Shown piece by piece: positions 1-20,255 of a stretch of DNA of 32,000 nt. A model generated the notes under the pieces. That model made no database searches, was not told where the DNA came from, and was given only the letters and a program-made list of their open reading frames with translations. The stretch spans positions 180,001 through 212,000 of the forward strand of contig NZ_CP064925.1 of NCBI RefSeq assembly GCF_018336915.1, in the 5' to 3' direction. Positions within the stretch are counted from its first letter, which is position 1; every line of letters starts with the position of its first letter. Source of the DNA: Acaryochloris marina S15 (lineage in GTDB: Bacteria > Cyanobacteriota > Cyanobacteriia > Thermosynechococcales > Thermosynechococcaceae). The position numbers and the translations under genes were made by a program.

Positions 1-3000
1 GTGATTTACCAGTCGAGTTGTCAGCTTATTGGCGTTCTTGTCCGCTGATATGTTTTTGTATATGTCGTGGTTCTTGTGAATGGCTAACAAGTACCGCTTA
101 TAATCTTCAGGTTCAGCCGATCTCATGTGGTCTGACGCTGAAATAAAGCGATGGGCATCGTTGATCGTTGCGCCGTTATCAGGTGACATACAGTAGCTGT
201 AAACCTCCATGTCCAGCCTTTCTTTAGGCATATCGCCGAATCGTTCTATAGCCTTCTTGGTAATAGCGTTGTACTGGGTTCTGTAGTGACGCTTAATCTC
301 AGCATCAGGCCTAACAGCATTTGCGATCGCAAGGTTATAGGCTTTCGGGCCAGCTTTCACAATTAGATCGTCCAGGCCTTTCCCTAGCTCTGGCTTCCAT
401 TGGGCAATCTTGCAGACAACGCCCCTAGTCTGCATTAGCTCTATTGTTCTCACCAAATCTCGACGCACATTTAGGATGCTCGATACCTTTGTGTCTTGGT
501 CAAAGGCAAAAGTGATTTGCCTACCCGGTTTAGCTAGTGCCTCACCGTACTCTGTTGGTTCACGTTGGGGCAGTCGTTTGTCATACTCATTCTTAGCCCT
601 GTATAAGGCAGTTACACCGGGTAGGCCTACGGTTAGGTGACCTTGACTCAAAGATGCCCATGTCTTTTTCAGGCCCTCAGTAATGACGATCGGTAGGTTA
701 TATTTGTCAGCTACATACCAAACCCCCTTAGACCGCTCCTCAGCAGTTGGACTGATGCCATTACGCTGATAAATTCGTTCCTCGATTGCCAAAGGTATCT
801 CAGGTAGAAAGACTTGTTGACCGGGTACTTTAGGCGTCTCGTATTTTATGATGTCGCCATCTTTGTCTAAGCGGGGGGTCTTAGGTTTCACTTGGCAATA
901 CTGGGATGGTTGAGGATTGCCCTCGATGACAGAGAGTAAATCAGTGCCACCATACCCGATCCATCCTCCCACCTCGGCAATGTGGCTGTACGCTTTCTCG
1001 TGGTCATACTGGGTATGGCCGTCAACGATGGAAGCTCGGTATAGAAGGCCCTTCATCTTGCCTGTAACCTCTTGTCCAGCCCCATACTTAGATTTAGTGA
1101 ATTCGGCTTCTAAGAGAGCGGCAACTAAAGGATTATCCCGGATGGAGCCATAAGGATCGGGGTTCTCACTTCGGAGATGATTCGAGGTCAATAGGTCGGG
1201 GTGAATACCGCTGTCCTTCATTTCCTTCCATGTATCCTCATCCAAGCCATAGGGCCGCTCTTCCTTGTCATAAGTTGGACTCCAGCCCGCATGAGGATCG
1301 AATAGTATCTCTAGTGCGTTCTCTTGAGCATAGGACTGTGCAACCCACTCTTGGAGCTTACTCAGGTCCTCAGTGAATACAGTCAGATACTTAGTCTTGT
1401 TCCTGGAGATAGCCACATAGAAGGATTCTTTGGCTGAGGTAGGATTAAGGCTAGCAATGTAGAGGGTTTCTGAGTTGGTACTACCTTGTGATCGATAGGT
1501 AGTCGTGGCCCAGTCATGATCTATCTGTAGGGGCTTGGCTAGGTCTAAGTGATGTACTCGGCCATGCTTATCTTTGACCGTTGCGATCTGATCTTTGATA
1601 TCGGTACAGGTCAAAAAAGCATTATTGTGGATATCCTTCTTCATGTTGGTTGAAGTGAACCGGAGCTTATCACCAACAGCAATCTGATTGCGCCTCGTCG
1701 TGTAAACCTGAGTTAGCTTATGCTCTGCAGGATTGATGGTGAAATGCCGACCGCCCGGTGACTGGACCTTAAGTTTTTTGCCCTCCACGGCCAAGACTTT
1801 ATAAGGGACATGGGTCTGAAGCTGGGTATAGAGCCTATGTTTCTTGTGCAGTACCAGTAAATCGCCCTTGTTGTAGTTCTCGGCCCGTTTCTTCTCGGCC
1901 TTGGAGAGGTTTCTTCTCTGGAGCTGAGTAAATTCAGTATCTTTGGTAAGCTGGCCTTCCTTGATAAGCTCGGCTCTTAGGAGTTTGGTAAAGCCAAACC
2001 GTTCTGCATTAGTCCCCACGACTACGAGGGTTTTGTCTCGGCGATGTTTAGGCTTCTCCATGTAATAGGCCACGGCACTTGTGAGCTTGGTTTCTGAGTC
2101 TTCGACCTCTCTGATATTTCCATTTTTTTCTAAAGCTCTCAGAGCCTCAACCCCGTGACCATCGGCGATAAGCTCAACGGCCCTAAGCTGTTCTTTGTTT
2201 TGCTGTCTAATGATTTGGTCGAGACGGTGAACGATTGCGCCTTTATTCATCAGCATTCGTACAGGTGCCCCTGCGGATATGGCGGCATTCTGCCCAGTGT
2301 CACCTACAAACCAGCACCTAGCCCCAACCTGTTCGGCTTTCTGGAGAATCTTCTCCATGTCCTCAGATCCAATCATGCCCGCTTCGTCAAATATCCAAAG
2401 CTGGTTTTTCCCTTCCGGTGGGGGACTGACAACAAAGCTGGCTATGGTTGTTCCTTCTAGTCCAAATGCCTCACTAATCTGATGTTTTGCATTGTGGGTG
2501 GGCGCAAAAACTTTAACATCCACATCTGGGGGTAATTGTTCCCTTGCAAGACCAAGAGCAGTTGTTTTACCCGTGCCTGCCAGTCCTTTTAGGATTTGGT
2601 ACTGATCCGAAAAGCTGAGTAAGCGTCTCATGGCTTCGGCCTGACCACTGTTTAGCATCGTGTCGCTAAAGTCAGCGGTTGGGTTCAGCGGGTCAACCTG
2701 GTTATCTGGGGATAGAACTATGTCTAAAATCCGTTGGTCCCTATCAACAGCGGCTTGGGTTGTGAGTCGGCCATCCCAGGCAGTAATCAGGTCCGGGTGT
2801 TTGGCAATCTCAGCATTTAAGGGCTTTTCGTCAAAACTTCGGAGGTGAGAGAACACAAACCGCTGTATGTCCTCGGCGTTGAATGAGGATTGATATTCTG
2901 TCAGGTGTGCTAATGCAGCGTCTAAAAGTTCTCGGGGTGTCTCTTGGTTTTCAGGCTTGATAGGTTGGTCAAATGGGGTTATGCCAGTGAAACCGACTGA

Positions 3001-3803
3001 GGCCATTTCTTCGCCCCATCGTTGCTGCTTATGTTCTAAAGTCTCTTTGCTGTCTTTGCCGATGCGAGTCTCAAAGGTAGCTTTCTGTCGATTTTTTGGG
3101 GTGTTGGCCCAACCCTTCTCTTTTAAGTAGTCTTCAATTTCAGTTGAGCGCTTACTGAATTGTTTAATCTGCTCATCGGTCACTCCTTCGAGGTCAAACC
3201 CGGTTTTTGTTTCGCGGATCTTATAGCCCAGCGCCTGGACCTTGAGAGCCATCTTCTGATCGTAGATGTCCCCTAAAACACTGCTTCTCGTTAGCAGCTC
3301 TTTGTAAAAAGCCCTGAATTCACCATCAGGGCATTGAGTTCCGTTGAATAAAACGACATGGGTATGCACATGCGGATCACCTGCCCTGCTTTCGTGGTGG
3401 TGGATAAGAGCAGCGGCGATGTTCCCAGTCTTTACGATTTGACGGTCATTGTTCTTCTGAATTCGGGCCGCTGCATATTCATCCTCAACGATTTGCATCA
3501 CTTCTTTAATGGCCTTGACATGGGCACCCCATAAACGGTGATCGCCGTTGGGTGCATGGATAGCCATGCTGAGGGATTTACCAGGAATCTTGAAGGTGAG
3601 GTCATAGGCTAAGCGTTCCTGGCCCTTACCCTTTACCTGGTTTCTAATTCGCCCCTTGCCTGGATAGTCCCCATAAAACAGCTTCGTAAATAGCTCAGCA
3701 GAGTAAGGGTCATTCGGTGCCATCCTGCCTATAAATTCGTTTTGAGTGATCCGCTGAATTTCCTCGTTTGGGCTGTAGTAGCTCTCTTCCTTGGTGTATA
3801 GCA

Positions 3804-4265
3804 CTACGGGAATATGTTAGTACACTCCTTAAAGGCAGCATCTACACAATCACGAAAAGTGTCAAACTCATCCCATCGCTGCTTCATCCAGTTTTTGAGT
3901 ACAAACCACCATCGCTCAATTTTGTTGAGATCAGGAGAATAGCTCGGTAGATACCAAATCTCACACCCTGCTTCAGCTACGATTTCTTCGATACTTTGTC
4001 CATGGTGAAAACTGGCATTATCAATCACGATAATATCGCCAGGGTGTAGCTGGGGCAGGAGACTCTGCTGTAACCACGCCTCAAATAACAAACGATTGCA
4101 AGACCCTTCGAAAGTCATCGGGGCAAATAACTGTCGCTCTTTGAGCGCAGCAATGAAACTGACTCGCTCTGTCCGCTTGCCTGATTTAAGGTCATAGAAT
4201 CGTTGACCAATGGGGCAATATCCATAGGGATAATCCGCTCGATTATCGATACCTGCTTCATCCAC
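3804..4265 (-). CDS. IS630-family transposase, C-terminal DDE_3 catalytic part
   Basis: VDEAGIDN...VIDNASFH...YLPSYSPDLNKIERWW is the DDE(D) signature of IS630/Tc1-mariner-like transposases. The frame is open upstream to the A8 run at 4354-4361. Confidence 0.85.
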   Translation of the reverse strand: MDEAGIDNRADYPYGYCPIGQRFYDLKSGKRTERVSFIAALKERQLFAPMTFEGSCNRLLFEAWLQQSLLPQLHPGDIIVIDNASFHHGQSIEEIVAEAGCEIWYLPSYSPDLNKIERWWFVLKNWMKQRWDEFDTFRDCVDAAFKECTNIFP

Positions 4266-4380
4266 ATAGACTATCTGGTGAGGATGTTTGGTCTGTAACC
4301 GCTCTATAAAGGCTTGGCGTTGCGTTTCATCCCGTTCTCGATAGCCATAGGTCTTTTTTTTCGACTCAATCCTAATTTCT

Positions 4381-4686
4381 TCAAGGCATCACTGATATTT
4401 TGCTGGGTGACATTATCACCCATAATTTAGCCATTTGGGCCTGAGTCTTTCCCCCATGCTCTTGAGCAAATTCACGAAAGCGCTCCCAATCTGTAATTTT
4501 GTGGCGAGCTCCTTGCTGGTAGTGGGTAATGGCCTGACAATCACCGGTCGATTCCTCTCGCGCTATCCATAAGTGCAAGGTGTTCCGACTGATGTTTAAC
4601 ATCCGGCATACGTCGACTTTCCGTTCTCCATTCTTGACCGCAGCAATCGCTTTGCAGCGAAGGTCATAACTATAAGGGGCTGGCAT
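4381..4686 (-). CDS. IS630-family transposase, N-terminal HTH part. The true start is MPAPYSYDLRCKAIAAV at 4686; the longer track ORF runs out through the IS end.
   Basis: MPAPYSYDLR...ISRNTLHLWI is typical of ISY100-type transposase N-termini. The frame is lost at TTATGGGTG (G3 run), where homologs would read LWGDNVTQQNISDALKKLGLSRKKK. Confidence 0.75.
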   Translation of the reverse strand: MPAPYSYDLRCKAIAAVKNGERKVDVCRMLNISRNTLHLWIAREESTGDCQAITHYQQGARHKITDWERFREFAQEHGGKTQAQMAKLWVIMSPSKISVMP

Positions 4687-4930
4687 ACTTCTGCAGTGAT
4701 AGCTTCTATTTATAGTACTAACACAGTTTCGTAGTGCTATAATACTTCGCACCGTCCTTAACGTTGGAATTGATGGTCGTGACATCTAGCATGATTTATC
4801 GAAAAAACCGATTCTTACCTTATTTATAGGAGTGTCACTGGGAAGACCAAAACTGAACATTAAAGCGCTCTGTTCAGATAGAAAGACATAGCACTCCTAT
4901 CTACGGATTTAGGCAATTTCAAATAAGCAC

Positions 4931-5476
4931 TTAGCTAAAATTAATTACATAATCATCGCCATAGGTTTTCAAAACTCTTTCCACATATTCGACCAAAGAT
5001 GACCACCCCCAGTAGGCACTCATTTCAATCCACTGATATTTCATGAATTGCCACAGACGCTCAATCAAATTTAGATGGGGAGAATAGCTTGGTAACTCAA
5101 ACAAGGTAATTCCCCGTTCGGCCCACTCTGCCTTCATCTCATAGATTGCTTGGCTCGTATGGATAGGGGCTTGATCCATCACAATGACGGTGGGCAACTC
5201 CACGTCAGTAAAGAAGGTATCAATGCAATGACTGACAACCTCACTGGTGATGGTCTGTTCTGATGTATAAGCATGTAGCCCTTGTCGTCGACTCAAAAAC
5301 CCCAGAACATTCAAGCGTTTACTTGAACGAGTTGGTATTTCCAGATAAGTCCCTATGGGTTGCCATCCGTAGGGAATACAGGGGACTAACGAAAAACCAC
5401 TCTCATCCATAAAGAATAGGTGGATGTCTCCCTTCTCTTCTTGTTTCTTGAGATGTTCTAACTGCTGTTTTTTTCG
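4931..5476 (-). CDS. IS630-family transposase OrfB (DDE_3), probably expressed as an OrfAB fusion by -1 frameshifting
   Basis: FMDESGFS...VMDQAPIH...ELPSYSPHLNLIERLW is the DDE signature. The OrfB frame is open upstream to the A7 run, reading RKKQQLEHLKKQEEKGDIHLFFMDESGF. Confidence 0.8.
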   Translation of the reverse strand, partial: RKKQQLEHLKKQEEKGDIHLFFMDESGFSLVPCIPYGWQPIGTYLEIPTRSSKRLNVLGFLSRRQGLHAYTSEQTITSEVVSHCIDTFFTDVELPTVIVMDQAPIHTSQAIYEMKAEWAERGITLFELPSYSPHLNLIERLWQFMKYQWIEMSAYWGWSSLVEYVERVLKTYGDDYVINFS

Positions 5477-5928
5477 AGGTAGTCGGCATATAAAGGCTGG
5501 CCTGATGTCCCTTGGCGAAAGCGATGCCAGCTCATATCCATCTGCTTCAAGACGCGTTTAACGGTGGCCTTTGACACGCGCACTGACCACTGCTGTTCAA
5601 TCTGAGCTAGCACCCGATTGAGTTGGATGGGAGATGCCTGAGTCCACTCATAAATCTGCTGTTGTTGGTCGGGATTAAACATCGGTTTTCGACCTCGGCC
5701 TGGGCGATTATAGAGTCCTGCAAAACCACGGTTATTCCAAGCCTTAAGCCAGTTGTACACGGTTTTAGGACTCACACTAAAAAGGGAGGCTAAGGTGTAG
5801 GGACTCCCACCCTGGGCAGACAAAATGAGGCAATGGGCGCGTTGTCTGACCTGATGATGGCGACTACAGCGATAAATCCGATGCAATAAGCGTAAGCTTT
5901 CGGTGGAGATAGGACGGACAATTGACAT
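5458..5928 (-). CDS. IS630-family transposase OrfA (HTH / winged-helix DNA-binding part)
   Basis: ATG at 5928. SPKTVYNWLKAWNNRGFAGL and RPGRGRKP are helix-turn-helix motifs typical of IS630 N-terminal domains. The ORF ends just after the slippery A_AAA_AAC sequence (T-run 5468-5474 on the + strand). Confidence 0.8.
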   Translation of the reverse strand: MSIVRPISTESLRLLHRIYRCSRHHQVRQRAHCLILSAQGGSPYTLASLFSVSPKTVYNWLKAWNNRGFAGLYNRPGRGRKPMFNPDQQQQIYEWTQASPIQLNRVLAQIEQQWSVRVSKATVKRVLKQMDMSWHRFRQGTSGQPLYADYLEKNSS

Positions 5929-6066
5929 CAAATCAATGGATGTAAAAAAGAGGACTCAGGTAGTTTACAACCTGGAAATTCTATGTAATTAATTTTGTCC
6001 ATCTGCTTAATTAGTAGACAAAGCAATTTAAAACCTCCAGTTTTAAAGCTTTAATGCACAAACCAA

Positions 6067-8574
6067 TCAAGAAAGTGATGCTAGATAGTTCCGAAGGCTT
6101 TGAGTATGGGGATGTTTACTCCCAAGTTTTTCCTCAAAAATGACTAGAGCTTTTCGATAAAGACCTTCTGCATCCTCATTTCTGCCTTGTTTTTGATAGA
6201 GTGCCCCTAAACACCACATAGATATAGCGACATCGGGGTGTTTGTTGCCCAAGAGCTTCTGTCTCATCTGTAGGGCTTGGACATAGAGGGGGTAGGCTTC
6301 TGAGTACCGTCCTTGGTTGTCGTAGAGTAAGGCCAGGTTATTGAGGCTAAGAGCGACATAGGGGTGTTCGTTGCCCAAGAGCTTCTGTGTCATCTCTAGG
6401 GCTTGGACAAAGAGGGGTTCGGCTTCTGAGTACCGTCCTTGGTTTTTGTAGAGTGCTGCCAGACTAAGGAGGCTAAGAGCGACATAGGGGTGTTCGTTGC
6501 CCAAGAGCTTCTGTGTCATCTCTAGGGCTTGGACAAAGAGGGGTTCGGCTTCTGAGTACCGTCCTTGGTTTTTGTAGAGTGCTGCCAGACTAAGGAGGCT
6601 AGTGGCGACAGAGGGGTGTTCGTTGCCCAAGAGCTTCTGGTACATCTCTAGGGCTTGGACAAAGAGGGGTTCGGCTTCTGAGTACCGTCCTTGGCTGTCG
6701 TAGAGTAAGGCCAGGTTATTGAGGCTAAAAGCGACATCGGGGTGTTCGTTGCCCAAGAGCTTCTGTGTCATCTCTAGGGCTTGGACAAAGAGGGGTTCGG
6801 CTTCTGAGTACCGTCCTTGGCTGTCGTAGAGTAAGGCCAGGTTATTGAGGCTAGTGGCGACAGAGGGGTGTTCGTTGCCCAAGAGCTTCTGGTACATCTC
6901 TAGGGCTTGGACAAAGAGGGGTTCTGCCTTCTCACACCGTCCTTGGTTGTCGTAGAGTAAGGCCAGGTTATTGAGGCTAGTCGCGACATCGGGGTGTTCG
7001 TTGCCCAAGAGCTTCTGTCTCATCTCTAGGGCTTGTGTATAGAGGGGTTCGGCTTCTGAGTACCGTCCTTGGTGGTTGTAGACTAAGGCCAGGTTATTGA
7101 GGCTACTCGCGACATCGGGGTGTTCATTGCCCAAGAGCTTCTGTCTCATCTGTAGGGCTTGTGTATAGAGGGGTTCTGCCTCCTCATACCGTCCTTGGTT
7201 GTAGTAGAGTCCTGCCAGGTTATTGAGGCTAGTGGCGACAGAGGGGTGTTCGTTACCGAATCTCTGTTGAGTCTGTTCCAGGCATTTTTGATACCAAGGC
7301 AAAGCCAATCCATAGTTCCCTTGCCCGTCATAAAATCGACCAATACCGACATAGGGCCAAATCAATTGATCATCACTGAGGTGGTCAATCCACTGTCTGG
7401 TTAGTTCCTCCAGATGGGGAATGCTGGCACTCATCCCTGCAATCACATCAATCGTTGGACTGTAATTAATACCCTGAGCAACACCAACCATTGCTGTGCA
7501 ATAAGCTGCTTGAAGGGATTCCCCTTTGTCAGTGCGCTCATTCAACTTAATCCGAAAGAACTCCTGCACAATTTGATGGAGTTGGTAGGTACTCTGTGCT
7601 ACTCGTTTGAGTAAGTTTCTAGCAATTAAACCTTCATCCCTGATGTCTTCCAGATCATCCTGATCCTGATCTGATAGACATCCTTCAACCAAATGCCAAG
7701 GAATAGGAGCAATTGCAAACATCCCTAATAGACAAGCGAGTTCTTGCTCTGCCTTACTTAGCTCTACCCAGCTTAACTCTAGAGCAGCAGCTACTCCTAA
7801 CTGAGCCGTCATTCCTGATTCTCTTGCTGTTAGTGCTTTAGCCTCAAGTCGCTTGGATTCAAGTCGCTCAATTAGTTTTTTAATAGACCAATCTGGCTTT
7901 TTAGCTAATGACCGTCCTAGCAGCTCTAGTCCAAGGGGCAGGTTACCGACCCAACCACACAAAGTTTTGGCATCTTCTAATTGAGATTGAACCCGTTGTT
8001 GTCCGATCAGCTTTTCTAGTAGTGTTAGTGCGCTCTCATTATCGAGTTCTTCCAGGCAAAGAGAGCGAACAGATCCACCAAAATCAAGTCGAGTGGTGAT
8101 CAGGACTTTGAACCGTGGGTTCGATAGAGGAAGACAGGAGGCAACAAGCTCATACTCAACCACATCGTCAACAACGATTAGGACCTCCCCTTGGGGCCAT
8201 CGTTGCCAAATGAAACTGACCTGGGCCTCTACTTCCAGATCATCTGGGGGTTTCATTCCCAGATGACTTTTAGAAAAATCAATAATCTGAGTGGTGATTT
8301 CTTGATCTCGCGACCGCAACCAACACACTCCACCCGAATAGAGATTTTGGATTAAGGACCGTTGAGCATATTTCCAAGCTAGTTCAGTTTTACCAATCCC
8401 TCCCATCCCTTCAAGTGCAGTGATAGCGATTCGCTGGTTACTTTGCAGTTGCTCATGCAGTTGCTTGATCTGGGAGTCTCGACCGACGAAGGTGACTGCC
8501 CCACTCGCTGGTAGGTTATTCGGTATATCGGTAAGGGGATGTAACTTTGTCCGGTCCCAGTCGGACGACTCCAC
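6067..8574 (-). CDS. STAND NTPase with an NB-ARC domain followed by about 10 TPR (TPR_10/12-type) repeats
   Basis: Walker A GMGGIGKTELA, Walker B LIVVDDV, KVLITTR, and GNLPLGLELLG (GLPL-like), all NB-ARC motifs. The 42-aa repeat LGNEHPxVAxSLNNLALLYxxQGRYSEAEPLFVQALEMxQKL occurs about 10 times. The annotated start is a GTG immediately after an in-frame TGA. Confidence 0.9.
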   Translation of the reverse strand: MESSDWDRTKLHPLTDIPNNLPASGAVTFVGRDSQIKQLHEQLQSNQRIAITALEGMGGIGKTELAWKYAQRSLIQNLYSGGVCWLRSRDQEITTQIIDFSKSHLGMKPPDDLEVEAQVSFIWQRWPQGEVLIVVDDVVEYELVASCLPLSNPRFKVLITTRLDFGGSVRSLCLEELDNESALTLLEKLIGQQRVQSQLEDAKTLCGWVGNLPLGLELLGRSLAKKPDWSIKKLIERLESKRLEAKALTARESGMTAQLGVAAALELSWVELSKAEQELACLLGMFAIAPIPWHLVEGCLSDQDQDDLEDIRDEGLIARNLLKRVAQSTYQLHQIVQEFFRIKLNERTDKGESLQAAYCTAMVGVAQGINYSPTIDVIAGMSASIPHLEELTRQWIDHLSDDQLIWPYVGIGRFYDGQGNYGLALPWYQKCLEQTQQRFGNEHPSVATSLNNLAGLYYNQGRYEEAEPLYTQALQMRQKLLGNEHPDVASSLNNLALVYNHQGRYSEAEPLYTQALEMRQKLLGNEHPDVATSLNNLALLYDNQGRCEKAEPLFVQALEMYQKLLGNEHPSVATSLNNLALLYDSQGRYSEAEPLFVQALEMTQKLLGNEHPDVAFSLNNLALLYDSQGRYSEAEPLFVQALEMYQKLLGNEHPSVATSLLSLAALYKNQGRYSEAEPLFVQALEMTQKLLGNEHPYVALSLLSLAALYKNQGRYSEAEPLFVQALEMTQKLLGNEHPYVALSLNNLALLYDNQGRYSEAYPLYVQALQMRQKLLGNKHPDVAISMWCLGALYQKQGRNEDAEGLYRKALVIFEEKLGSKHPHTQSLRNYLASLS
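6100..7300 (-). repeat. 126-bp tandem repeats encoding the TPR units, with near-perfect copies at the DNA level
   Basis: For example, 6361-6474 is repeated exactly at 6487-6600 (offset 126). Related units continue across about 6230-7260. Confidence 0.9.
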
Positions 8575-9788: not shown

Positions 9789-9873
9789 TCCATGCCCACT
9801 CAAAAAAAGTTTTTGGTCTTTCTGATTGCAAGCCTATAGATAGGTGAGGACGACAAACATAGGAGATTCAGGA

Positions 9874-10872
9874 ATGGATCGAGAACTAAAGATATGCACT
9901 GATCTAGGCTCAAGCATGGGCAAGGGTTGTTATGACCTCGACGGGTCTATCAGGTGGATTGCTCAAGATAATGCAGTTGAAGAGGAGGAGGTTAGAGACC
10001 TGGACAGTGAGAGCTGTGTAATCGAGTACAAGGGTAGAGCATGGACGGTCGGCTCTAGCGCTATTTACGGACTACATGAAACCTCGTTGCATCAGAACAA
10101 AGCAGAGCAAGCCAGTCTAAGAACTCTGGGAATGCTTGGCAAGGTCATTGAACGAGAGCAGTTTTTAGAGGGCTATGTTGATCTAACGGTGCTTTTACCT
10201 GAAGGTGAGCGGCGATACTTTAAAACCTTGGAGTCGAACCTGGCGAAAGGTATTTACGGATCAACATTCAACGGTCTTAAGCCAAACGTGAAAGTGCGAC
10301 GGGTCCGGGTACTGCCTGAAGGATCGGGTATTGCTTCACAGATACAAGATCAGGGGGCAATGGCGATCATGTTTGGTCACAAGGATGTCTCGTTGCTCCA
10401 AGTTCTGAACGGCGTAATCCAGGCTCAGAAGAGTCTCACGCTTTCCAACCTTGGGATGATTAAGCTCATCAGTGAATGCGGCATTCACATTTCAGATGAA
10501 CTGATCCTTTCTACACTGATCTGTAGAGAAGTCAGAAACAAGAATGGGTTTAAACATGCTTTCTCGGATAAGGAAGCATTGAAGAACGCCAGACAGATCC
10601 TCAAGGATACAAAGGCTAAAGTTTGGCCTCTACTCTCCAGAAAGTTTGACGGGTTTCCAGCCTTGGGGACTGCAACCAAGATTTATGTGACTGGGGGCAG
10701 TCATCCAGTCTGGGGGCCAGAGCTAAAAAACAAGTTTGGAACTAAGCTGCGTTTCTTCAAGGATGAACTTGAAGAGATGTCAGGGGCCTTGCCAGAACTG
10801 AATGCGCCAGAGTACACGGGGTACAAGAATCGGTTTACTGACAGTTATCTATTGATTAAGGGGGTTGGGTGA
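9874..10872 (+). CDS. Actin-like ATPase (ParM/Alp-like), candidate type II plasmid-partition motor
   Basis: ICTDLGSSMGKG resembles the ParM phosphate-1 motif (FIDDGSTNIKL). VRVLPEGSGIA resembles VKVMPESIPAG. IYVTGGSHPVWGPELK resembles the adenosine motif VMVIGGGAELI. Phosphate-2 is degenerate (AIMFGHKDVSLLQV). GGAG sits 8 nt upstream of the ATG at 9874; the track's GTG at 9844 is less likely. Confidence 0.6.
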   Translation: MDRELKICTDLGSSMGKGCYDLDGSIRWIAQDNAVEEEEVRDLDSESCVIEYKGRAWTVGSSAIYGLHETSLHQNKAEQASLRTLGMLGKVIEREQFLEGYVDLTVLLPEGERRYFKTLESNLAKGIYGSTFNGLKPNVKVRRVRVLPEGSGIASQIQDQGAMAIMFGHKDVSLLQVLNGVIQAQKSLTLSNLGMIKLISECGIHISDELILSTLICREVRNKNGFKHAFSDKEALKNARQILKDTKAKVWPLLSRKFDGFPALGTATKIYVTGGSHPVWGPELKNKFGTKLRFFKDELEEMSGALPELNAPEYTGYKNRFTDSYLLIKGVG

Positions 10873-11893: not shown

Positions 11894-12589
11894 ATGCACA
11901 ATCTAGACGATATCCTCCAACTATTAGAAGTTTCCCAAGAGACCCTTGACAAAATCCTGAAGGCTATGGGTTGGGAGGGTTTGACCCAGTTTGATGATAG
12001 CCAGTCAGAACTATTGATGGTCGTAAACGCAGGTCACAGCTCCCACGGCTGGAGTTATACCGAAAGCTATCTAAGGAACGTTGCTCACAAGCAGGGTTTA
12101 ACCCCCGAACAATATGACGAACTAGCTTCAGCAATCACAGGATCGGGTAGCACTCTGGGACAATACCGCGAACGTTTTGAAGCTCTGTGTCAGCGAGTTC
12201 AGGCAGGGGAGAAACCTAAAACTGTGATCGAATCAGCTTCGGCCCCCTCCGATCAAGAGATCAAGGTAGCTGCAGAAAAGTCCGGTGTTGGCATGGAGGG
12301 CAACGAACTTGTGAACCTGTTGAAAGGGATTGCACGGGCAAATGCCAAAAAGCTTTGCGAGACGGTTGAAGAACTTGCCGCTATGGGTGCAGCGGATCAA
12401 TTAACTGCTCAAGAAATTTATATTGCCGAGTACCGTCAGGTTGTCTGTGAAACCTTGCAAAGTGCGGATTTTAAAAAGCGGACTGATGCAATTATGCAGG
12501 GAGGTACTGAGACAGAGCAAAAAAAGCAATTGCAAAGCTTGATTTTTGGTCAAACGATCCCCGCAGGACTATTGCCCAGCAGCAACTAG
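11894..12589 (+). CDS. Hypothetical protein (231 aa)
   Basis: Long ORF with coding-like composition. No family recognised. Confidence 0.55.
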   Translation: MHNLDDILQLLEVSQETLDKILKAMGWEGLTQFDDSQSELLMVVNAGHSSHGWSYTESYLRNVAHKQGLTPEQYDELASAITGSGSTLGQYRERFEALCQRVQAGEKPKTVIESASAPSDQEIKVAAEKSGVGMEGNELVNLLKGIARANAKKLCETVEELAAMGAADQLTAQEIYIAEYRQVVCETLQSADFKKRTDAIMQGGTETEQKKQLQSLIFGQTIPAGLLPSSN

Positions 12590-12624
12590 TTTCCTATCTT
12601 GAGACCTATCTAACAAAAAACGGT

Positions 12625-12861
12625 TTGGCGCTTAAACAACGGTTCGCCCAGATAGAGGCGACCAAAAGGAAGTTAGACCAAGCCGATCGCGCCCTGCGAA
12701 TGAGACAAGTTGAAAAGGACATCCAGCGAGAAAACAAATGGTACAGGCTAACCCATATCTCGATTGGGATAGGCATCGGCGTTGCATTAACCCTCTTTGG
12801 ACTGTCCTTTAAAGATAACCTCAGCAATCCAGCTCCAGTTGTGCAAGTCGAAGGTAAATAA
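12625..12861 (+). CDS. Hypothetical coiled-coil protein with a C-terminal TM helix
   Basis: Charged helical N-terminus followed by ISIGIGIGVALTLFGL. The start is uncertain (TTG at 12625, or the internal ATG beginning MRQVEK). Confidence 0.4.
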   Translation: MALKQRFAQIEATKRKLDQADRALRMRQVEKDIQRENKWYRLTHISIGIGIGVALTLFGLSFKDNLSNPAPVVQVEGK

Positions 12862-12926
12862 TCATGTCTGACAACAGCAAGAAGTTAAGGCTGTTCTTTG
12901 CGATGGCCGAAGGCCGCTCTTCGAGC

Positions 12927-13084
12927 ATCGCAACTTGATACCAACTTCCTGGTATCACACCTATTGATTCACTCAAACTTTCAAATTCTATAGGGATTCT
13001 GTATTACCTAACCCAATCATTCGTCCATCCATCCCAACCCAAAACTTAGTCTTTTGAAATCCCTAGAGAATTCATATTACCTAG
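12927..13084 (+). repeat. Dispersed structured repeat, full copy A
   Basis: ATCGCAACTTGATACCAACTTCC...TTTCAAATTCTATAGGGATTCTGTATTACCTA...GAAATCCCTAGAGAATTCATATTACCTAG. It aligns along its length with 13729-13898. Internal inverted repeat: AAATTCTATAGGGATT with AAATCCCTAGAGAATT. Confidence 0.85.
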
Positions 13085-13128
13085 CTAAGGCTATTCGTTA
13101 AGTACACCAGTCACAAAGTAAAAAAACT

Positions 13129-13263
13129 ATGCTCACCAGAAAAGTAATCGTGTGTTGCAGTATTGGCGCTTTAGTACTTCTATGTTCAGCGTCTGCCCTG
13201 TTTATGAAGCCCCTGGAAAGGGAAAACCCTGTATACGTGGACACAGGAGAAAACAGCAATTAG
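13129..13263 (+). CDS. Possible 44-aa exported or hydrophobic peptide (MLTRKVIVCCSIGALVLLCSASALFMKPLERENPVYVDTGENSN)
   Basis: ATG-initiated ORF lying between the two full repeat copies, with a signal-peptide-like N-terminus. It competes with track ORF 13152..13364 in another frame. Confidence 0.3.
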   Translation: MLTRKVIVCCSIGALVLLCSASALFMKPLERENPVYVDTGENSN

Positions 13264-13395
13264 TCCCAAAAACTTATGCTCAAGTGGATTCCGCTTATTC
13301 TGACCGATGGCTAAAAAACAATAAAACGACCTCCCGATCTTCCAGTCCAAGAGGTCGCAAATAAATCCTTGCCTAAATTATAACGAGGTCACCCA

Positions 13396-13614
13396 ATGAT
13401 GACTAACCCCTTTTTCGGCTACTACGAGCAAATCTGGATCGACCACCAGACCGACTACGGACAGCACCCAGACCCATGCATAGGACTGCCACTAGACCAG
13501 ATCCAAGACCGGGTTTCGTCCTGGTTGGCTGATTTTAACCCGCTGATATCACCTGAGCCGCAGGCAACTGAGAGTATCCAGGCGGGCATTGTCCAGCGAT
13601 TCTATGGGTGGTAG
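13396..13614 (+). CDS. Hypothetical protein (72 aa)
   Basis: GAGG 7-8 nt upstream of the ATG. Coding-like composition. Confidence 0.45.
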   Translation: MMTNPFFGYYEQIWIDHQTDYGQHPDPCIGLPLDQIQDRVSSWLADFNPLISPEPQATESIQAGIVQRFYGW

Positions 13615-13728
13615 CGATGACCCAATACTCAAAACCACGATGAACCTCCGGGTTGGGAGTGGGGGAGTGTTGCAATTGCATGTATTGATGATGTGCCGTT
13701 TTGAGTATGGGGGTTGCAATGCGTTAAT

Positions 13729-13898
13729 GCGATCGCAACTTGATACCAACTCCCTGATATCACACCTATTAATTTATCCAGTCTTTCAACCTTTCAAATT
13801 CTCTCGGGATTCTGTATTGCCTAATTAATTTTCTCACCCATCCACTCACACCAAAAGCTCAGTCTTTCAAAATCCCTAGAGAATCCATCTTAGGTAAT
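13729..13898 (+). repeat. Dispersed structured repeat, full copy B
   Basis: Begins with HIP1 (GCGATCGCAACTTGATACCAACTCCC) and contains TTTCAAATTCTCTCGGGATTCTGTATTGCCTAA...AAATCCCTAGAGAATCCATCTTAGGTAAT. Homologous to copy A. Confidence 0.85.
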
Positions 13899-13936
13899 TT
13901 CATTCGATGACTCATGTATAGCAAGGACTTCGACCA

Positions 13937-14329
13937 ATGCTAGACTCTAATCCAATCACTCTAAATCCTCTCTACAGCACGTTTTTTGATGCGATTAGAG
14001 AGAATCCATCGCTTTACACCGACTTTCTTCAGGTCCGCGCACTCAGCAATAAAGCCCATGCAACCATCGCCAAATGGGATGGTGTTGTTTGCCCCGGCTT
14101 CTTCACTGACGAACACGGGTTGAGTGGTCAGGAGATTGTAGATCTGTTAGTCCAGAACTCAGATAGAGGGCTACTAGAGGATTACCAGCAATTTCAGGCA
14201 GATGGCGAGACAGTTAGAAATATTTGGGCTAAACATAAGGACGTTGTAGACATGCGCTTTTGGACGGTTGAAAGCGTTCCTATCGTGTATGAAATCGCTG
14301 AGTCTTTAGGATTGGAAGCTATTCATTAA
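13937..14329 (+). CDS. Hypothetical protein (130 aa)
   Basis: AAGGA about 9 nt upstream of the ATG. Coding-like composition. No family recognised. Confidence 0.55.
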   Translation: MLDSNPITLNPLYSTFFDAIRENPSLYTDFLQVRALSNKAHATIAKWDGVVCPGFFTDEHGLSGQEIVDLLVQNSDRGLLEDYQQFQADGETVRNIWAKHKDVVDMRFWTVESVPIVYEIAESLGLEAIH

Positions 14330-14355
14330 CTTTCATTTTCTGGAAGGATTCTGTA

Positions 14356-15033
14356 TTACCTAGTAACTTTGTTAATGCACTGCGATAAATCAGGCTTTAA
14401 TGCATCGATTTTGTATTGCTCACAGCCTTTGAAAGTGTCAGTGTGCAAAGGGTTCACAGCACAAGTTAGTTCGCTGGGTTCCTTGCCGTAAGCTTCAATT
14501 TCTCCAGACGGATCAACCCAGTATCGACAACTAAAGCACTTGTCGCGAACGTGAGGATATGCTTTAGAAAACCAAGGAATTTCTCGAAAATTTAGTCGCC
14601 ATGTAATCCTTTGATTTTCGCCTTCAACAATGTAAAAAGCACCCATTTCATAAAGCCAAAGCATGGTGAGATAGGTATGCTCTGGATTGATTTGCTGTAG
14701 ACGAGCTTCATCAAGATTTAGCCGAGTGATTTTTCTCAGGTAAGCAGCTCCATTTTTTATGAAGCGTTTGACATTATGCCTTGGGTATTTCTGGTGAATC
14801 TGACAATAAAGGTAATCCCTGACTTGTTCTTCCCGGTGCCAGATTTTTGAGTGCTCTTTGGTCATTCTTGGGACAGTAACCAGGCACCCACCTAGAGATG
14901 CTGCGCTCCCCCATAGAATGCGTCGGGCAAGGGGTTTAAGTCCTCCGACTTCTGCGATCGCAGCACTAGGAATTAAACCCACGGATAGGACCATAAAGGC
15001 CATCGCAATCTCGTCTTTAGTTATTCGTTTCAC
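14356..15033 (-). CDS. Hypothetical protein with N-terminal TM segments and a Cys-containing C-terminal region
   Basis: AMAFMVLSVGLIPSAAIA and GSAASLGGCLV are hydrophobic segments. CFSC...C...C lies in the C-terminal third. Last gene of the minus-strand operon. Confidence 0.55.
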   Translation of the reverse strand: MKRITKDEIAMAFMVLSVGLIPSAAIAEVGGLKPLARRILWGSAASLGGCLVTVPRMTKEHSKIWHREEQVRDYLYCQIHQKYPRHNVKRFIKNGAAYLRKITRLNLDEARLQQINPEHTYLTMLWLYEMGAFYIVEGENQRITWRLNFREIPWFSKAYPHVRDKCFSCRYWVDPSGEIEAYGKEPSELTCAVNPLHTDTFKGCEQYKIDALKPDLSQCINKVTR

Positions 15034-15139
15034 TGTGCTTTACCTTCGTGGTTAAAAGGAATATTCGGAGCGGTATAAGGATAATTTTCAAACCCGTGCA
15101 GCGACTTGAGTGGATGAGCGGTTGATGGGCAGAACATTT

Positions 15140-15538
15140 CTAGCTTGCATGGCTTAGCTCCAACTGATCGGCGGCAGGGTATTTCCAGTTCAGATATGCG
15201 GCGAGTCCATGACCGGGGTCGGGTGTGCGGTGCGTCCCAATCACAACTGAGCCAGCTCTGACAATGTTCTTGACTTCAGCAATAACGGCGTCTTTCGTGG
15301 GTGGCGTCCATCTGCCAGAAACTAAGATTTCTCGCTCTTTGGACAGTTTTAGCGCAACGTCCATCGGCATCTTATTCAGCTCTAAAACCCTGTAGAGGTA
15401 TGCTTTGTATGCCTCCACACATCTAATGTTCTCAGGGTCACTATAGGGATGGAATGGGGAACGCAGAGGGCCACTCTCTAGCAGGTAAACCCCTTCTCTG
15501 TGGGTCGTTCTAGACAATTTCTTTACTTTGATATTCAT
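15140..15538 (-). CDS. Hypothetical protein, weakly DUF4326-like
   Basis: GGAGG 7 nt upstream of the start. GVYLLESGPLRSPF...CVEAYKAYLYRVL and VIGTHRTPDPGHGLAAYLN loosely follow the DUF4326 pattern (vYiGR..wGNPF...yr.wl...C.C.P.pCHgdvL), but the cysteines are absent. Confidence 0.5.
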   Translation of the reverse strand: MNIKVKKLSRTTHREGVYLLESGPLRSPFHPYSDPENIRCVEAYKAYLYRVLELNKMPMDVALKLSKEREILVSGRWTPPTKDAVIAEVKNIVRAGSVVIGTHRTPDPGHGLAAYLNWKYPAADQLELSHAS

Positions 15539-15649
15539 CGAACTGCCTCCAACTGGAGTTGTTTAAATCTTTGAGGGAAGCCCTGACTTAAAACTCTGGG
15601 GTAACCACCAGGGCGCGTAAGAGTGTACGGATTTGAATCGATAGAGCTA

Positions 15650-16270
15650 TTACGATGAATAGTTTTCGGCTAGAGAATAGTTCTGCCCTAACCTGTTCCT
15701 AACCTGTAAGGTTGTTTGTTGCGCTGAATGGGCAGAGTTGCCCTCAGTGACCCCTTTCTGCTCGAAGGTTTCAGGATGCATTAACAACAAACCATTGCGA
15801 GTGGCCAAGGCTTCAAATCTGCCAGTGCCGACCATTACCGTAGTTTTAAAGGTGGAATTGTGCAACGCCATGCAGGCCATTAGCAAGCCGGGGCTTGGCG
15901 GTAAAAACCAGTCGCCTGTGATTGTTACATCAAAGGACTTTGCGATTTTCTGGGTTAAGGTTGATTGTGTGTTAAATATACCGATATCAGGTATTTGACA
16001 CCGTGTTACAACCATTTCGCTGCCCTGGTTAGTTGTGAACATGCTTACGCCGATTAATTGGCCATAGCGGCTCATCGCGGCTTGATGGTAGTCGAGAACT
16101 TCTGTTAGAGTGCGCTCACCTTTTGCGATTCTGGATTGATCTGAAATCATTGCCAGATGCCATCCTCCCTTGTGCGCTGTTGTTAAGGCTGCTAGCAATG
16201 CTTGTCGGGGTCTGAGGTGGTTGACTGGTTGGAGTTCGGCGGGGTCAATGATGAGTAATTTGTTGGCCAT
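15650..16270 (-). CDS. HAD-IIIA (GmhB / polynucleotide 3'-phosphatase-like) family protein with degenerate catalytic motifs
   Basis: LAMISDQSRIAKGERT resembles GmhB LVVVTNQSGIARGKFT. PPSPGLLMACMA resembles RKPHPGMLL. Motif I reads IIDPAE instead of DxDGT, and motif IV reads VGTGRFE instead of VGDxxxD. Confidence 0.5.
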   Translation of the reverse strand: MANKLLIIDPAELQPVNHLRPRQALLAALTTAHKGGWHLAMISDQSRIAKGERTLTEVLDYHQAAMSRYGQLIGVSMFTTNQGSEMVVTRCQIPDIGIFNTQSTLTQKIAKSFDVTITGDWFLPPSPGLLMACMALHNSTFKTTVMVGTGRFEALATRNGLLLMHPETFEQKGVTEGNSAHSAQQTTLQVRNRLGQNYSLAENYSS

Positions 16271-16673: not shown

Positions 16674-17303
16674 TTACGCGCCGATGCTTTGACGTAAGTT
16701 GTGTTCAGCATCGATCCAAGTTTTTCTCTGGGTCCAGTCAAACTGGCCGACATCTTCGCGGTAGGAAGGGAACAGCTTCAGGATTTTGTTTTCTACTCCG
16801 TCTAAATCGCCGGGTTCAACTTCGGCAAACTCGAATATGTCCTCACCGAGCTGTTCAAAGCCTTGGCGGGCTTCGTTGTAGCTTGTAAAAAAGTTCTTCC
16901 ATCCCTCCTTGCTGCGGAATTTTGCATCGCCTTTCACTACATGAATGGAGACTTGCGCTACTGGATCGCCGTTAAACATGCCCAGCAGCCCTGGAATGAT
17001 AATGGAGGCAAGGCCGCTGGTTTTTTTGTTGGTCTCTCGCTGTGGAAGCTTTTCGGCGTCTAACTTGAGGATGTTGAACAGCTCTATGGCATCCTCAGTC
17101 TTATTCAGGCGTTTATGGCCATGATGCAATGCACGGGCAAACTTTTCTAAATCAGTTGTAGGGTCGATATCCTTTGGGTTGTGGTTTTTGCAAATGTGAT
17201 GCTTGAGCTTGAATTTCTCGTGATTGTTCTCGATACCCTGAGGGTCGAAGTGGTCTTTAATCGCAGTTTGAATAGATTTGATTGTTGCGTTTTCAAGAGA
17301 CAT
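16674..17303 (-). CDS. Hypothetical protein (209 aa from MSLENATIK)
   Basis: The ATG at 17303 is preceded by AAAGGAATCCAAAATC, part of a leader conserved with the one upstream of 17961. The track's extension to 17465 overlaps another coding-like frame. Confidence 0.6.
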   Translation of the reverse strand: MSLENATIKSIQTAIKDHFDPQGIENNHEKFKLKHHICKNHNPKDIDPTTDLEKFARALHHGHKRLNKTEDAIELFNILKLDAEKLPQRETNKKTSGLASIIIPGLLGMFNGDPVAQVSIHVVKGDAKFRSKEGWKNFFTSYNEARQGFEQLGEDIFEFAEVEPGDLDGVENKILKLFPSYREDVGQFDWTQRKTWIDAEHNLRQSIGA

Positions 17304-17385
17304 GATTTTGGATTCCTTTAATGTGCAAAGTGTTGTGATTGGGAAAGGTCGCCCGGTCTTGGGATGGAAGGCGGCCAAGCCTTTA

Positions 17386-17649
17386 TCTGGTGGCGGTAGA
17401 CGGCTTTGTGCCAGGGACGGGAACATGGCCCCAAGTGCTGGTGATATGCTCAAACTCAGAGGCAATTTGCTCTTGGTGTTGAGCGTTTGCGGCCTCTACA
17501 GATTCATATAGGCGGGAAACAGCTTGGCCAAAAGTCCCGAAGCGTTGGGAGCGCTGAAAACTGTTAACTATGTAATAAAAGTTATTGCTGTGATCGCGGT
17601 AGATGCTGCCTAGAACCTCGTCATGGTTGTAAGCGATCCAAGTGTAGGC
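17386..17649 (-). other. Coding-like open frame of 87 sense codons with no ATG/GTG/TTG start, in frame with ORF 17656..17961 behind TGA CCA TGA
   Basis: Manual translation: AYTWIAYNHDEVLGSIYRDHSNNFYYIVNSFQRSQRFGTFGQAVSRLYESVEAANAQHQEQIASEFEHITSTWGHVPVPGTKPSTATR, then TAA at 17386-17388. Confidence 0.45.
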
Positions 17650-17655
17650 TCATGG

Positions 17656-17961
17656 TCAATACCGATAGGCTTGGCCTCTGTTTTTCCAGAGCATACTTAG
17701 CGCTGTTTCACGGTCTCCTGAGTAAATCAATTCGCTAACAGTGTCATACCCTTTTTCTGGTAGGCAAAGGATCGAAGCTTCCCAGCCGTCACCCAAAATG
17801 TTTTTAGTAAGACTTCCAATACACTGCCTTGACTGTCTCAACATCAAGTAACAGTTACCTTGGCCAGTGGAATAGTTGATGTTTTCCTCTAGCTGATACA
17901 GAGCGTTTTTCTTGAGGACATTTAAGCGTGTAGCTGTTTTGGTCAGTGTTGCATTAGTCAT
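17656..17961 (-). CDS. Hypothetical protein (101 aa)
   Basis: The ATG is preceded by the conserved leader AAAGGAATTCAAAGAAATATC. Coding-like composition. Confidence 0.55.
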   Translation of the reverse strand: MTNATLTKTATRLNVLKKNALYQLEENINYSTGQGNCYLMLRQSRQCIGSLTKNILGDGWEASILCLPEKGYDTVSELIYSGDRETALSMLWKNRGQAYRY

Positions 17962-18009
17962 GATATTTCTTTGAATTCCTTTAATTTGTAAAGCGTTGTG
18001 ATTAGGAAA

Positions 18010-18038
18010 GGCCGAAGCGGTAAGGGAGAGCTTCGGCC
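18010..18038 (-). terminator. Hairpin (9-bp GC-rich stem) just downstream of the sigma-like gene. Candidate terminator or attenuator.
   Basis: GGCCGAAGC (18010-18018) pairs with GCTTCGGCC (18030-18038). On the minus strand it is followed by TTTCCT, a weak U-tract. Confidence 0.45.
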
Positions 18039-18047
18039 AACGGATTG

Positions 18048-18785
18048 CTAGTAGCTAGGGGCCGCAGAAAAGACGGACGAGACCAACTCCTTGATCTGCG
18101 GATTCTCTTTGAGCTGTTCACGGGATACACGAAGGTATTTTCTGACCGTCCATCTTGAAAGCCCAAGGCTAGCGGCGATGTTGGCCGATCCCTCACCCTG
18201 CCAGTAATGAGCTTGGATGAGCTTTACATTGAAATCTGGCAATGCAGTAGTGATAATCTGATCGAGCTTGTCTCTTAAATCGTTATTCGGCTCAGTATCG
18301 ATGGGGATATCCTCATGGCCCACAGGTTTAATGCACTTGAGTTTTTCGCAGGTGACCTTGGTTCTGCGGTAGTATCCAAACTCCTTATCGAAAAGCTTGA
18401 TAAATAGCTGTCTGAGCTGAAATGACACCCAGCTTTTGAACCCTTTTTTCCGTCCGGGTTTATTTGGATTGTGGTTGTTCGCTGCCCGCTCCACACAAAT
18501 CACACCCAGTTGATACATCTCCTCAGTTGGAATGTGTTCGGAGCCATTAAAGCGATGGATTTGTGCCAAAATGACCGGGCGACACTCTTTCACTAGCAAC
18601 CCCATCGCCCGGTCACCGCGAAGGCAAATCCGTTTCTCTTCGAGTGTTAAGCCCTCTTTCTTGCGCTTCAGCAATTGAGTGCGTTCTTTAACATGGGCCA
18701 CTAATGCCCATTCTTCTTGTTCTGTCAAACCCTCACGGGTAGAGCGATTGCTATAACTATCCTGGGAAATAACTGTCTGTACCAT
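18048..18785 (-). CDS. Sigma-70 family protein (regions 2 and 4; ECF/group-3-like)
   Basis: EEMYQLGVICVERAANNHNP...FKSWVSFQLRQ fits sigma region 2 (eDLiQeG.iGL.kA...F..ya.w.ir). LIQAHYWQGEGSANIAASLGLSRWTVRKYLRVSREQL fits the region 4 HTH. Confidence 0.7.
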   Translation of the reverse strand: MVQTVISQDSYSNRSTREGLTEQEEWALVAHVKERTQLLKRKKEGLTLEEKRICLRGDRAMGLLVKECRPVILAQIHRFNGSEHIPTEEMYQLGVICVERAANNHNPNKPGRKKGFKSWVSFQLRQLFIKLFDKEFGYYRRTKVTCEKLKCIKPVGHEDIPIDTEPNNDLRDKLDQIITTALPDFNVKLIQAHYWQGEGSANIAASLGLSRWTVRKYLRVSREQLKENPQIKELVSSVFSAAPSY

Positions 18786-18847
18786 GATGAATTTCTCTCT
18801 AAAAATGTGTCGATCAGGGTGATTAGTGGCTCACCCAAGCCAGAAAA

Positions 18848-19717: not shown

Positions 19718-19787
19718 AATATTCATTCCCTTGTGTAGCGAGTGGGTGTAAGTGAAGTGGAAGGGGCAAAGATGCCCCAAGAGATTT

Positions 19788-20165: not shown

Positions 20166-20192
20166 AGTTAATCCTTATCAGGTTTTAACTGG

Positions 20193-20250
20193 GGCACCGC
20201 TTGAGATTCGCAGTCGTGAGCGGTGCCTTTGTTTGTATGTCTATATAATA
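20193..20250 (+). promoter_or_regulatory. Candidate oriT: inverted repeat followed by a TrwC(R388)-like nic core
   Basis: GGCACCGCT (20193-20201) pairs with AGCGGTGCC (20219-20227). This is followed by TTTGTTTGTATGTCT|ATATAA, with the putative nick between 20242 and 20243. The R388 oriT as I recall it is GCGCACCGAAAGGTGCGTATTGTCT|ATAGCC, sharing GCACCG/GGTGC arms and GTAT(T)GTCT|ATA. Confidence 0.45.
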
Positions 20251-20255
20251 CCATT

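Follow-up and report, generated by a model that had tools for sequence, protein, structure and literature searches.

At the left end of a 32,000-nucleotide stretch of Acaryochloris marina S15 DNA (NZ_CP064925.1, positions 180,001 to 212,000; the whole stretch is referred to below as the window) lies mobF, a gene for a TrwC-type relaxase that is split in codon 18 by an insertion sequence (IS) of the IS630 family. The encoded protein joins the relaxase to a superfamily 1 (SF1) helicase and, at its C-terminus, to a module with a DUF3854 domain that is homologous to part of the plasmid replication protein CyRepA1. As the DNA stands, the gene is inactive, with codons 1-17, including that for Tyr17, severed from the remainder and the upstream region also disrupted. 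We conclude that mobF most probably belongs to a pMB08/pMB04-like Acaryochloris plasmid and encodes a conjugative relaxase-helicase with its own primase, and that it was inactivated recently; the insertion would have deprived the plasmid of its ability to transfer.

An interrupted relaxase gene at the window edge

On the minus strand, 1272 codons without a stop extend from a TAA at 3819-3817 to the window edge at position 1. As a preliminary description of this DNA had recognized, the gene is missing from the list of open reading frames (ORFs) because its frame runs past the window edge, and the window sequence contains neither a stop codon nor a frameshift within 1-3800, which that description had singled out as the findings that would speak against an intact frame. 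Once the IS and one copy of its TA target are removed, minus-strand positions 1-3798 and 4742-4792 form a single stop-free frame of 1283 codons starting at ATG 4792. About 32 codons are cut off at the left window edge (the pMB08 orthologue has 1315 amino acids and that of pREB2 has 1317), and a full-length product of about 1315 amino acids is expected. No contig with the missing C-terminus was recovered either by an exact look-up of the neighbouring NB-ARC/TPR protein or by scanning genome contigs for an exact 40-mer.

The restored N-terminus, AKYYTKEESYYS (also given as MLDVTTINSNVKDGAKYYTKEESYYS), reads AKY followed directly by YTKEESYYS across the junction. Except for D3N, it is that of the intact mobF on plasmid pMB04 of Acaryochloris sp. 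'Moss Beach', which reads MLNVTTINSNVKDGAKYYTKEESYYS across the insertion site. The earlier proposal that precise excision restores a TrwC-like N-terminus is therefore borne out, since the frame joins and the outcome matches intact alleles. Two details of that proposal needed correction. Insertion did occur at a TA, but between Tyr17 and Tyr18 rather than between residues numbered Y17 and Y19, where the target TA opens the Tyr18 codon TAC; and the leucine placed at the restored junction is actually the last in-frame codon of the IS, a point on which the intact pMB04 allele agrees.

Translation of the remainder could restart at an in-frame GTG (3804-3802) within the IS end, giving V-L-Y18 and onward, or at ATG 3723 (Met43). 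Products from either codon lack residues 1-17, including Tyr17. A truncated product without this tyrosine had been foreseen correctly, whereas ATG 3723 had been taken as its only possible start.

Relaxase and helicase domains of the MOBF type

Assignment of the N-terminal part to the MobF relaxases was upheld by profile searches. Pfam TrwC (PF08751) matched residues 12-284 at 7e-67, with 226 bits against a cut-off of 25, and the NCBIfam MobF equivalog NF041492 scored 232 bits against a cut-off of 100. The nearest solved relaxase domains are conjugative, namely those of pCU1 TraI (3L57, 4e-34) and TrwC (1OMH, 4e-27). Tyrosines 17, 18, 24 and 25 of the restored protein align to Tyr18, Tyr19, Tyr26 and Tyr27 of pCU1 TraI; Tyr17 corresponds to the leading tyrosine of the N-terminal pair in both TrwC and pCU1 TraI. 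The motif YY-x5-6-YY is present in the restored sequence and, in the DNA as it stands, is split by the IS after Y17. Further relaxase motifs are the second tyrosine pair (YY, 24-25), YDLTF at 82 and a His metal-binding motif (H-x-x-x-R...H-x-H), HHHESRAGDPHVHTH at 150-164, which aligns to frhetsraldpdlhth of pCU1 TraI.

The P-loop helicase that had been noticed behind the relaxase is of the SF1 class, with AAA_30 at residues 399-584 (1.5e-51) and TraI_hel_assoc_N matched in Pfam and the TraA_Ti and TraI models in NCBIfam. Its motifs are Walker A GLAGTGKTT at 422, Walker B DEAGM at 488 and TTYRSQG at 783. All motifs quoted in the preliminary description could be located; besides the His motif and the two Walker motifs, they comprise ITEGLKKT at 1056 and FAFDQD at 1114 of the C-terminal module.

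By every feature that can be tested in sequence, the protein is a member of the MOBF family. As in TrwC of R388 and TraI of pCU1/pKM101 and F, an HUH relaxase that has paired tyrosines and a His triad stands at the N-terminus ahead of an SF1 helicase, scores exceed the cut-offs of the family models, and relatives of the gene lie beside coupling-protein and secretion genes. Unlike TrwC and TraI, the window protein adds a DnaG-like module and tail of about 440 residues at the C-terminus.

A DnaG-like module at the C-terminus

Pfam confirmed the DUF3854 domain named in the preliminary description (Table 1). An AlphaFold2 model of the last 410 residues, built with 31 homologues, reached a predicted local distance difference test score (pLDDT) of 89 and a predicted TM-score (pTM) of 0.85. 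When this model was compared with the PDB by Foldseek, the only significant matches were DnaG cores, those of B. subtilis (5GUJ, RNA-polymerase domain, E 2.6e-5) and of the Aquifex primase (2AU3, E 3.1e-5), both at a probability of 1.0 across about 390 columns, followed by a PDB match with an E of 0.03. Among the viral structures of BFVD, the named matches at E <= 0.001 were DnaG/twinkle-type TOPRIM or DNA primases, with DnaG-type enzymes of phages leading, and the others carried no functional name. The TOPRIM- and primase-like nature proposed earlier for this part of the protein accords with both searches.

Acidic residues of the module are invariant from Acaryochloris MobF to CyRepA1: E1058 in TEGxKKT, D1117 and D1119 in FxFDxD, and D1160 and D1161 in KGxDD. 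They fall where TOPRIM primases place acidic metal ligands. Also invariant is a K1002-Y1003-x-x-P motif ahead of the TOPRIM core, whose resemblance to DnaG KYLNSP was judged by eye only. A phmmer search of the PDB with the module yielded spurious matches to PPR repeats and no solved relative. Because sequence searches fail to link the module to DnaG, its assignment as a primase rests on structure prediction and motif conservation, and on these grounds we read it as a DnaG-like primase core lacking a zinc finger.

Homology to CyRepA replication proteins

A link to CyRepA, pointed out in the preliminary description, proved to be real. BLASTP aligned residues 874-1167 to residues 8-269 of Slr7037, the CyRepA1 of pSYSA, with 31% identity (E 5e-31), and DUF3854 is reported to occur with a DEXDc helicase in CyRepA1 and CyRepA2, where it is called Toprim-related (PMC10079941). 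The homologous module spans about 290 residues including DUF3854, with GGW, KYExP, TEGxKKT, FxFDxD and KGxDD invariant. Its setting differs: in the CyRepA proteins the module is N-terminal, is followed by a DEXDc-type helicase and is accompanied by no relaxase, whereas in MobF a relaxase and an SF1 helicase precede it. The NCBIfam matches of the mobF protein include no CyRepA1 naming model, and the protein is not of the CyRepA1 family because its architecture is a different one.

Plasmid pMB08 has, in addition to mobF, a separate gene (17019-20819 of its locus) for a protein of 1266 amino acids annotated as 'CyRepA1 family'. Pfam had no match for this protein at E <= 1e-4, and BLASTP did not relate it significantly to the MobF module; it is either a very divergent member of the family or the product of a generous annotation. 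The idea of mobF as the sole replication candidate was dropped as the principal interpretation on account of this gene.

Two IS630-family insertions

Knock-out by an IS630-family element, as proposed earlier, was confirmed from the anatomy of the element, its TA duplication and comparison with intact alleles. The element in codon 18, here termed IS1, has terminal inverted repeats with 10 perfect bp (TAGCACTACG) and more matches inward, and its transposase parts match HTH_Tnp_IS630 (1.8e-5) and DDE_3 (1.6e-39) in Pfam. Over its full 941 bp it is 87% identical in nucleotide sequence to ISAcma31 of A. marina MBIC11017. The TA duplication, the terminal inverted repeats and the arrangement of helix-turn-helix and DDE_3 parts across an A8 slippery run are those of IS630 and ISAcma31. 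Since the annotated ISAcma31 coding sequence of 884 nucleotides is not a multiple of 3, a programmed -1 shift is indicated at the A8 run, which ISAcma31 and IS1 have in common. The window copy departs from ISAcma31 by an extra 1-nucleotide deletion near 4421 that shifts the orfA frame and brings it to an early end at 4383-4381. IS1 is thus a defective copy that probably cannot move by means of its own transposase.

A second element, IS2, apparently intact and missing from pMB04 and pMB08, lies in the intergenic region between mobF and a gene for a TPR protein, 132 bp upstream of the mobF ATG. Neither IS2 nor the frameshift in the IS1 transposase had been noticed in the preliminary description. 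No further copy of either element occurs within the window.

Alleles, selection and timing

The DNA of mobF shares 84-93% identity with the genes of pMB04, pMB08, pREC1 and pREB2, each of which bears the annotation 'MobF family relaxase'; at the protein level, identity of the restored sequence to the products of pREB2, pMB08 and pMB04 is 88-96%. These Acaryochloris plasmid genes have the same three domains and the same neighbours (TPR gene, ParM, ArdC-like); the window allele is split at codon 18 and has IS2 upstream, whereas their alleles are intact at these sites. Relative to three intact alleles, the ratio of nonsynonymous to synonymous divergence (dN/dS) was 0.05-0.11 across all domains, the primase-like one among them. 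No relaxed selection is therefore visible and the frame is otherwise intact, from which we infer that the insertion is young compared with the divergence among these alleles.

Synonymous divergence (dS) of the window gene is a mosaic, with the primase part nearest to pMB08 (dS 0.08) and the helicase part nearest to pMB04 (dS 0.18 versus 0.48). This pattern suggests recombination between plasmid alleles. The pMB04 gene (11950-15762 of its locus) ends early, with 1270 amino acids versus 1315 and a different tail, so that the C-terminal helical tail either varies or is decaying there. Frameshifts divide mobF of several relatives into an ORF for the relaxase and a second, overlapping one for the helicase and DUF3854 (Table 1). 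The breaks fall at differing positions and may reflect sequencing errors, decay or genuinely split genes. Proteins that combine helicase and module without a relaxase were considered as evidence for an independent product and set aside, several being contig-end truncations or frameshift splits at differing positions.

Proposed function and its alternatives

By the mechanism we propose, the intact protein would nick the origin of transfer (oriT), form a covalent bond to the 5' end through a tyrosine and unwind the strand destined for transfer. The coupling protein and type IV secretion system, whose genes are adjacent in relatives, would export the protein with the DNA, and the attached primase would then lay primers in the recipient for synthesis of the complementary strand. 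Such logic is that of RSF1010 MobA-RepB' and of the transferred primases Sog and TraC.

A parallel with RSF1010 had been drawn in the preliminary description, and it holds for the logic of the fusion: in MobA-RepB', too, a relaxase is covalently joined to a primase, which is thereby carried along with the strand being transferred. The account given by a 2025 review of Henderson and Meyer 1999 is that the R1162/RSF1010 primase is required for mobilization (as cited in PMC12857230). The parallel fails for the class of relaxase and for the fold of the primase, as MobA is a MOBQ relaxase with no helicase, whereas the window protein is MOBF and has DnaG-type structural matches. No RepB' entry was found among the PDB matches listed by Foldseek for the module, and RepB' is not known to be a primase of the TOPRIM/DnaG type. 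Sog and TraC are DnaG-related. Encoded by the plasmids ColIb-P9 and RP4, respectively, they are primases that act on the transferred single strand (PMC4595007). They differ from the window protein as separate proteins unfused to a relaxase. The same 2025 review lists helicase domains for MOBF relaxases and primase domains for some MOBQ relaxases only (PMC12857230).

Several observations weigh against a conjugative relaxase-helicase with its own primase. Superposition on 5GUJ and 2AU3 gave modest TM-scores of 0.40-0.49 at a root-mean-square deviation of about 10 Å, values that are as expected for a match spanning several subdomains. At E <= 10, Pfam returned DUF3854 alone and no Toprim or DnaG family for the module, and hhalign of the family profile against the single E. 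coli DnaG sequence gave a visibly misaligned, nonsignificant match (E 0.13). A zinc-binding domain is lacking, with no Cys/His cluster in residues 871-1283 and with the module directly following the helicase. No oriT or nic site could be assigned. Upstream of mobF, good alignment is confined to the three closest alleles and does not extend to pREB2; the conserved leader between the start codon and IS2 is a possible location of oriT. Coupling-protein and secretion genes are absent from the window, whose left flank lies outside it, and the searchable literature yielded no demonstration of conjugation by Acaryochloris plasmids. Finally, the 1266-codon remainder of mobF is fully open, and a truncated product may still be in use.

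This last observation bears on the alternative that survives best, in which plasmid replication of the CyRepA kind, more than conjugation, is the main task of the protein or of its helicase-primase two-thirds, and a relaxase-less product is still made downstream of the IS. A working product of this sort would account for the intact frame, and in-frame restart codons are on hand at 3804 and 3723; a recent insertion, however, would equally give an intact frame and low dN/dS. The module is homologous to the N-terminal module of a proven replication protein, CyRepA1 (31%, E 5e-31; PMC10079941), but the syntenic sister plasmid pMB08 has its separate gene annotated as a CyRepA1-family replication protein. 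On Acaryochloris plasmids mobF lies near a ParM partition operon on the opposite strand, it adjoins such an operon on pAQ6, which is typed as mobilizable only, and each Acaryochloris plasmid has exactly one mobF (PMC9324425); on pREB2 and pMB08, however, the gene adjoins coupling-protein and secretion genes, and its relaxase domain is best matched by the conjugative TraI and TrwC. ORFs that start just before the helicase recur among relatives, yet they break at differing sites and at least one comes from a contig of 3x coverage, so sequencing errors or decay are likely. On balance we consider this alternative unlikely. A combined scenario, in which one primase module is common to CyRepA initiators and MobF and the helicase-primase portion of MobF also acts alone in plasmid maintenance, made here from GTG 3804 or ATG 3723, is a long shot; a relaxase-less product that is still useful would explain both the untouched 1266-codon frame and the recurrent ORFs starting before the helicase.

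Alternatively, DUF3854 could be the domain of a TOPRIM enzyme other than a primase, such as a nuclease or a protein that processes DNA ends. TOPRIM folds occur also in nucleases and topoisomerases, and such an enzyme would fit the missing zinc-binding domain, the recovery of DUF3854 alone by sequence and the nonsignificant alignment to DnaG. We regard it as quite improbable, since the structural matches extend beyond the TOPRIM subdomain over the roughly 390 columns of DnaG catalytic cores, the significant named matches in both PDB and BFVD are DnaG-type primases, K-Y-x-x-P is invariant across the family upstream of the TOPRIM core, where DnaG has K-Y-L-N-S-P, and CyRepA1, a replication protein, pairs the module with a helicase.

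That the insertion is no stable knock-out at all and reflects a minority allele, an assembly choice or an excision-driven on/off switch for transfer is highly improbable, because the transposase of this IS1 copy is frameshifted, the window offers no other IS1 copy and IS2 upstream would likewise need to be tolerated, even though the TA duplication and two intact gene halves mean that exact excision would restore the gene and many IS630-family copies reside on Acaryochloris plasmids.

Spread of the architecture

With the module as query, tblastn matched 213 PLSDB plasmids; the ten genera that occur most often, with 163 records, are cyanobacterial throughout. Some of the matched stretches fall within mobF genes of Acaryochloris, Nostoc, Tolypothrix and Picosynechococcus, others within replication genes annotated 'CyRepA1 family', including that for Slr7037 of pSYSA. 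A collection of 1.84 billion representative proteins held 1179 clusters with the module at E <= 1e-3; among the best 142 of these, 28 also have a MobF relaxase and 46 a CyRepA-type helicase. A DNA pattern for TEGxKKT...FxxDxD with 153 spacer bases, which covers only variants with one extra residue, gave 7 matches, all cyanobacterial. As a sample rather than a census, these 7 matches hint that the module may be restricted to cyanobacteria.

The three-part form is the usual, already annotated form of MobF on cyanobacterial plasmids, and its being common and annotated had escaped the preliminary description. The window gene is accordingly a new inactivated allele of an annotated family, whereas the architecture of that family is under-described yet abundant in databases. 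In our literature search, no paper dealt with a fusion of a MOBF relaxase to a primase in cyanobacteria. In a protein of 1983 amino acids from an unrelated lineage (P0072), a TrwC relaxase and SF1 helicases are joined to DUF7146 and Toprim_3. As its TOPRIM family is a different one, fusions of relaxase, helicase and TOPRIM domains arose more than once.

As one more inactivated allele of a relaxase family annotated in RefSeq, the gene itself is mostly ordinary. At the level of the family, cyanobacterial MOBF relaxases bear, beside their helicase, a DnaG-like core homologous to the CyRepA module, a feature unmentioned in the searchable papers and in the 2025 review. Should the module prime the complementary strand in recipients, it would extend the principle of MobA-RepB' to MOBF systems, and priming in the recipient could then matter for the construction of conjugative or broad-host cyanobacterial vectors.

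Plasmid context and neighbouring genes

The window is syntenic with pMB08, in which mobF, the TPR gene, a small hypothetical ORF and a ParM-like gene are followed further on by an ArdC-like gene. In pREB2 and pMB08, mobF adjoins a coupling-protein gene and a large type IV secretion-like cluster. A single mobF is reported for every pREC plasmid and for pREB1-8 and has been used for plasmid classification, with the primase-like part going unmentioned (PMC9324425). On pMB06, the coupling-protein gene (12357-13953 of its locus) is short, and a transposase gene of the IS630 family comes directly after it; this would seem to be a further case of a conjugation gene struck by that family. Together with the two IS630 insertions found here and the frameshifted mobF ORFs of relatives, the coupling-protein gene that such an element appears to split on pMB06 suggests frequent loss of transfer genes from these IS-rich megaplasmids. 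Features of the window and the split genes of relatives are collected in Table 1.

Table 1. Position of mobF parts, insertion sequences and other features. Positions refer to the window, except for the split genes, for which those of the respective locus are given.
Feature	Position	Strand	Basis
mobF codons 1-17 (MLDVTTINSNVKDGAKY)	4742..4792	-	reading frame, pMB04 comparison, pCU1 TraI alignment
Rest of TrwC-type HUH relaxase, codons 18-290	2980..3798	-	PF08751 residues 12-284, NF041492, 3L57/1OMH matches
SF1 (RecD/TraI-like) helicase, residues 399-870	1240..2655	-	AAA_30, TraI_hel_assoc_N, TraA_Ti and TraI models
DnaG-like primase module (predicted), residues 874-1203	241..1230	-	DUF3854, AlphaFold2, Foldseek, invariant residues, CyRepA1 homology
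DUF3854 (TOPRIM) core, residues 1045-1169	343-717	-	Pfam 1.3e-37
Helical C-terminal tail, residues 1204-1283, cut by window edge	1..240	-	AlphaFold2 helices; pMB08/pREB2 lengths
IS1, ISAcma31-like, IS630 family, 941 bp, in mobF codon 18	3799..4739	-	inverted repeats, TA duplication, HTH/DDE_3
IS1 landmarks	orfA ATG 4686; A8 slippery run 4354-4361; orfB stop 3806-3804	-	
TA target-site duplication, upstream copy (other copy 3797-3798)	4740..4741	.	
Conserved 5' leader/promoter-proximal region of mobF, cut from upstream sequence by IS2	4793..4925	-	pMB04/pMB08 alignment
IS2, second IS630-family element, 1082 bp, TA duplication	4926..6007	-	orfA/orfB joined at A7 run
ParM-like actin protein, weak ALP_N match	9844-10872	+	
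ArdC-N and Peptidase_M78 antirestriction-like protein	18848-19864	-	
ISAzo13-type transposase split into two ORFs	23654-24894	-	
AbrB-like regulator	28548-28928	-	
Split mobF in relatives (proteins P0137, P0193, P0149)	L006 (pMB06) 4380-8311; L010 3983-7913; L011 3120-9657		

Between 26000 and 32000 the G+C content of the window falls to 0.33-0.40, against about 0.47 elsewhere, and an ORF of 695 amino acids in this stretch (29674-31761, minus strand) had no Pfam match. The 124-kb plasmid pAQ6 of Picosynechococcus PCC 7002, typed in PLSDB as mobilizable only, encodes a MobF of 1249 amino acids with the same three domains (1278-6485 of its locus), divergent beside a ParM operon. Directly upstream of mobF in the window, the minus strand at 6067-8574 encodes a STAND-type protein of 835 amino acids with NB-ARC and multiple TPR domains, and a TPR gene occupies the equivalent position in pMB04 and pMB08.

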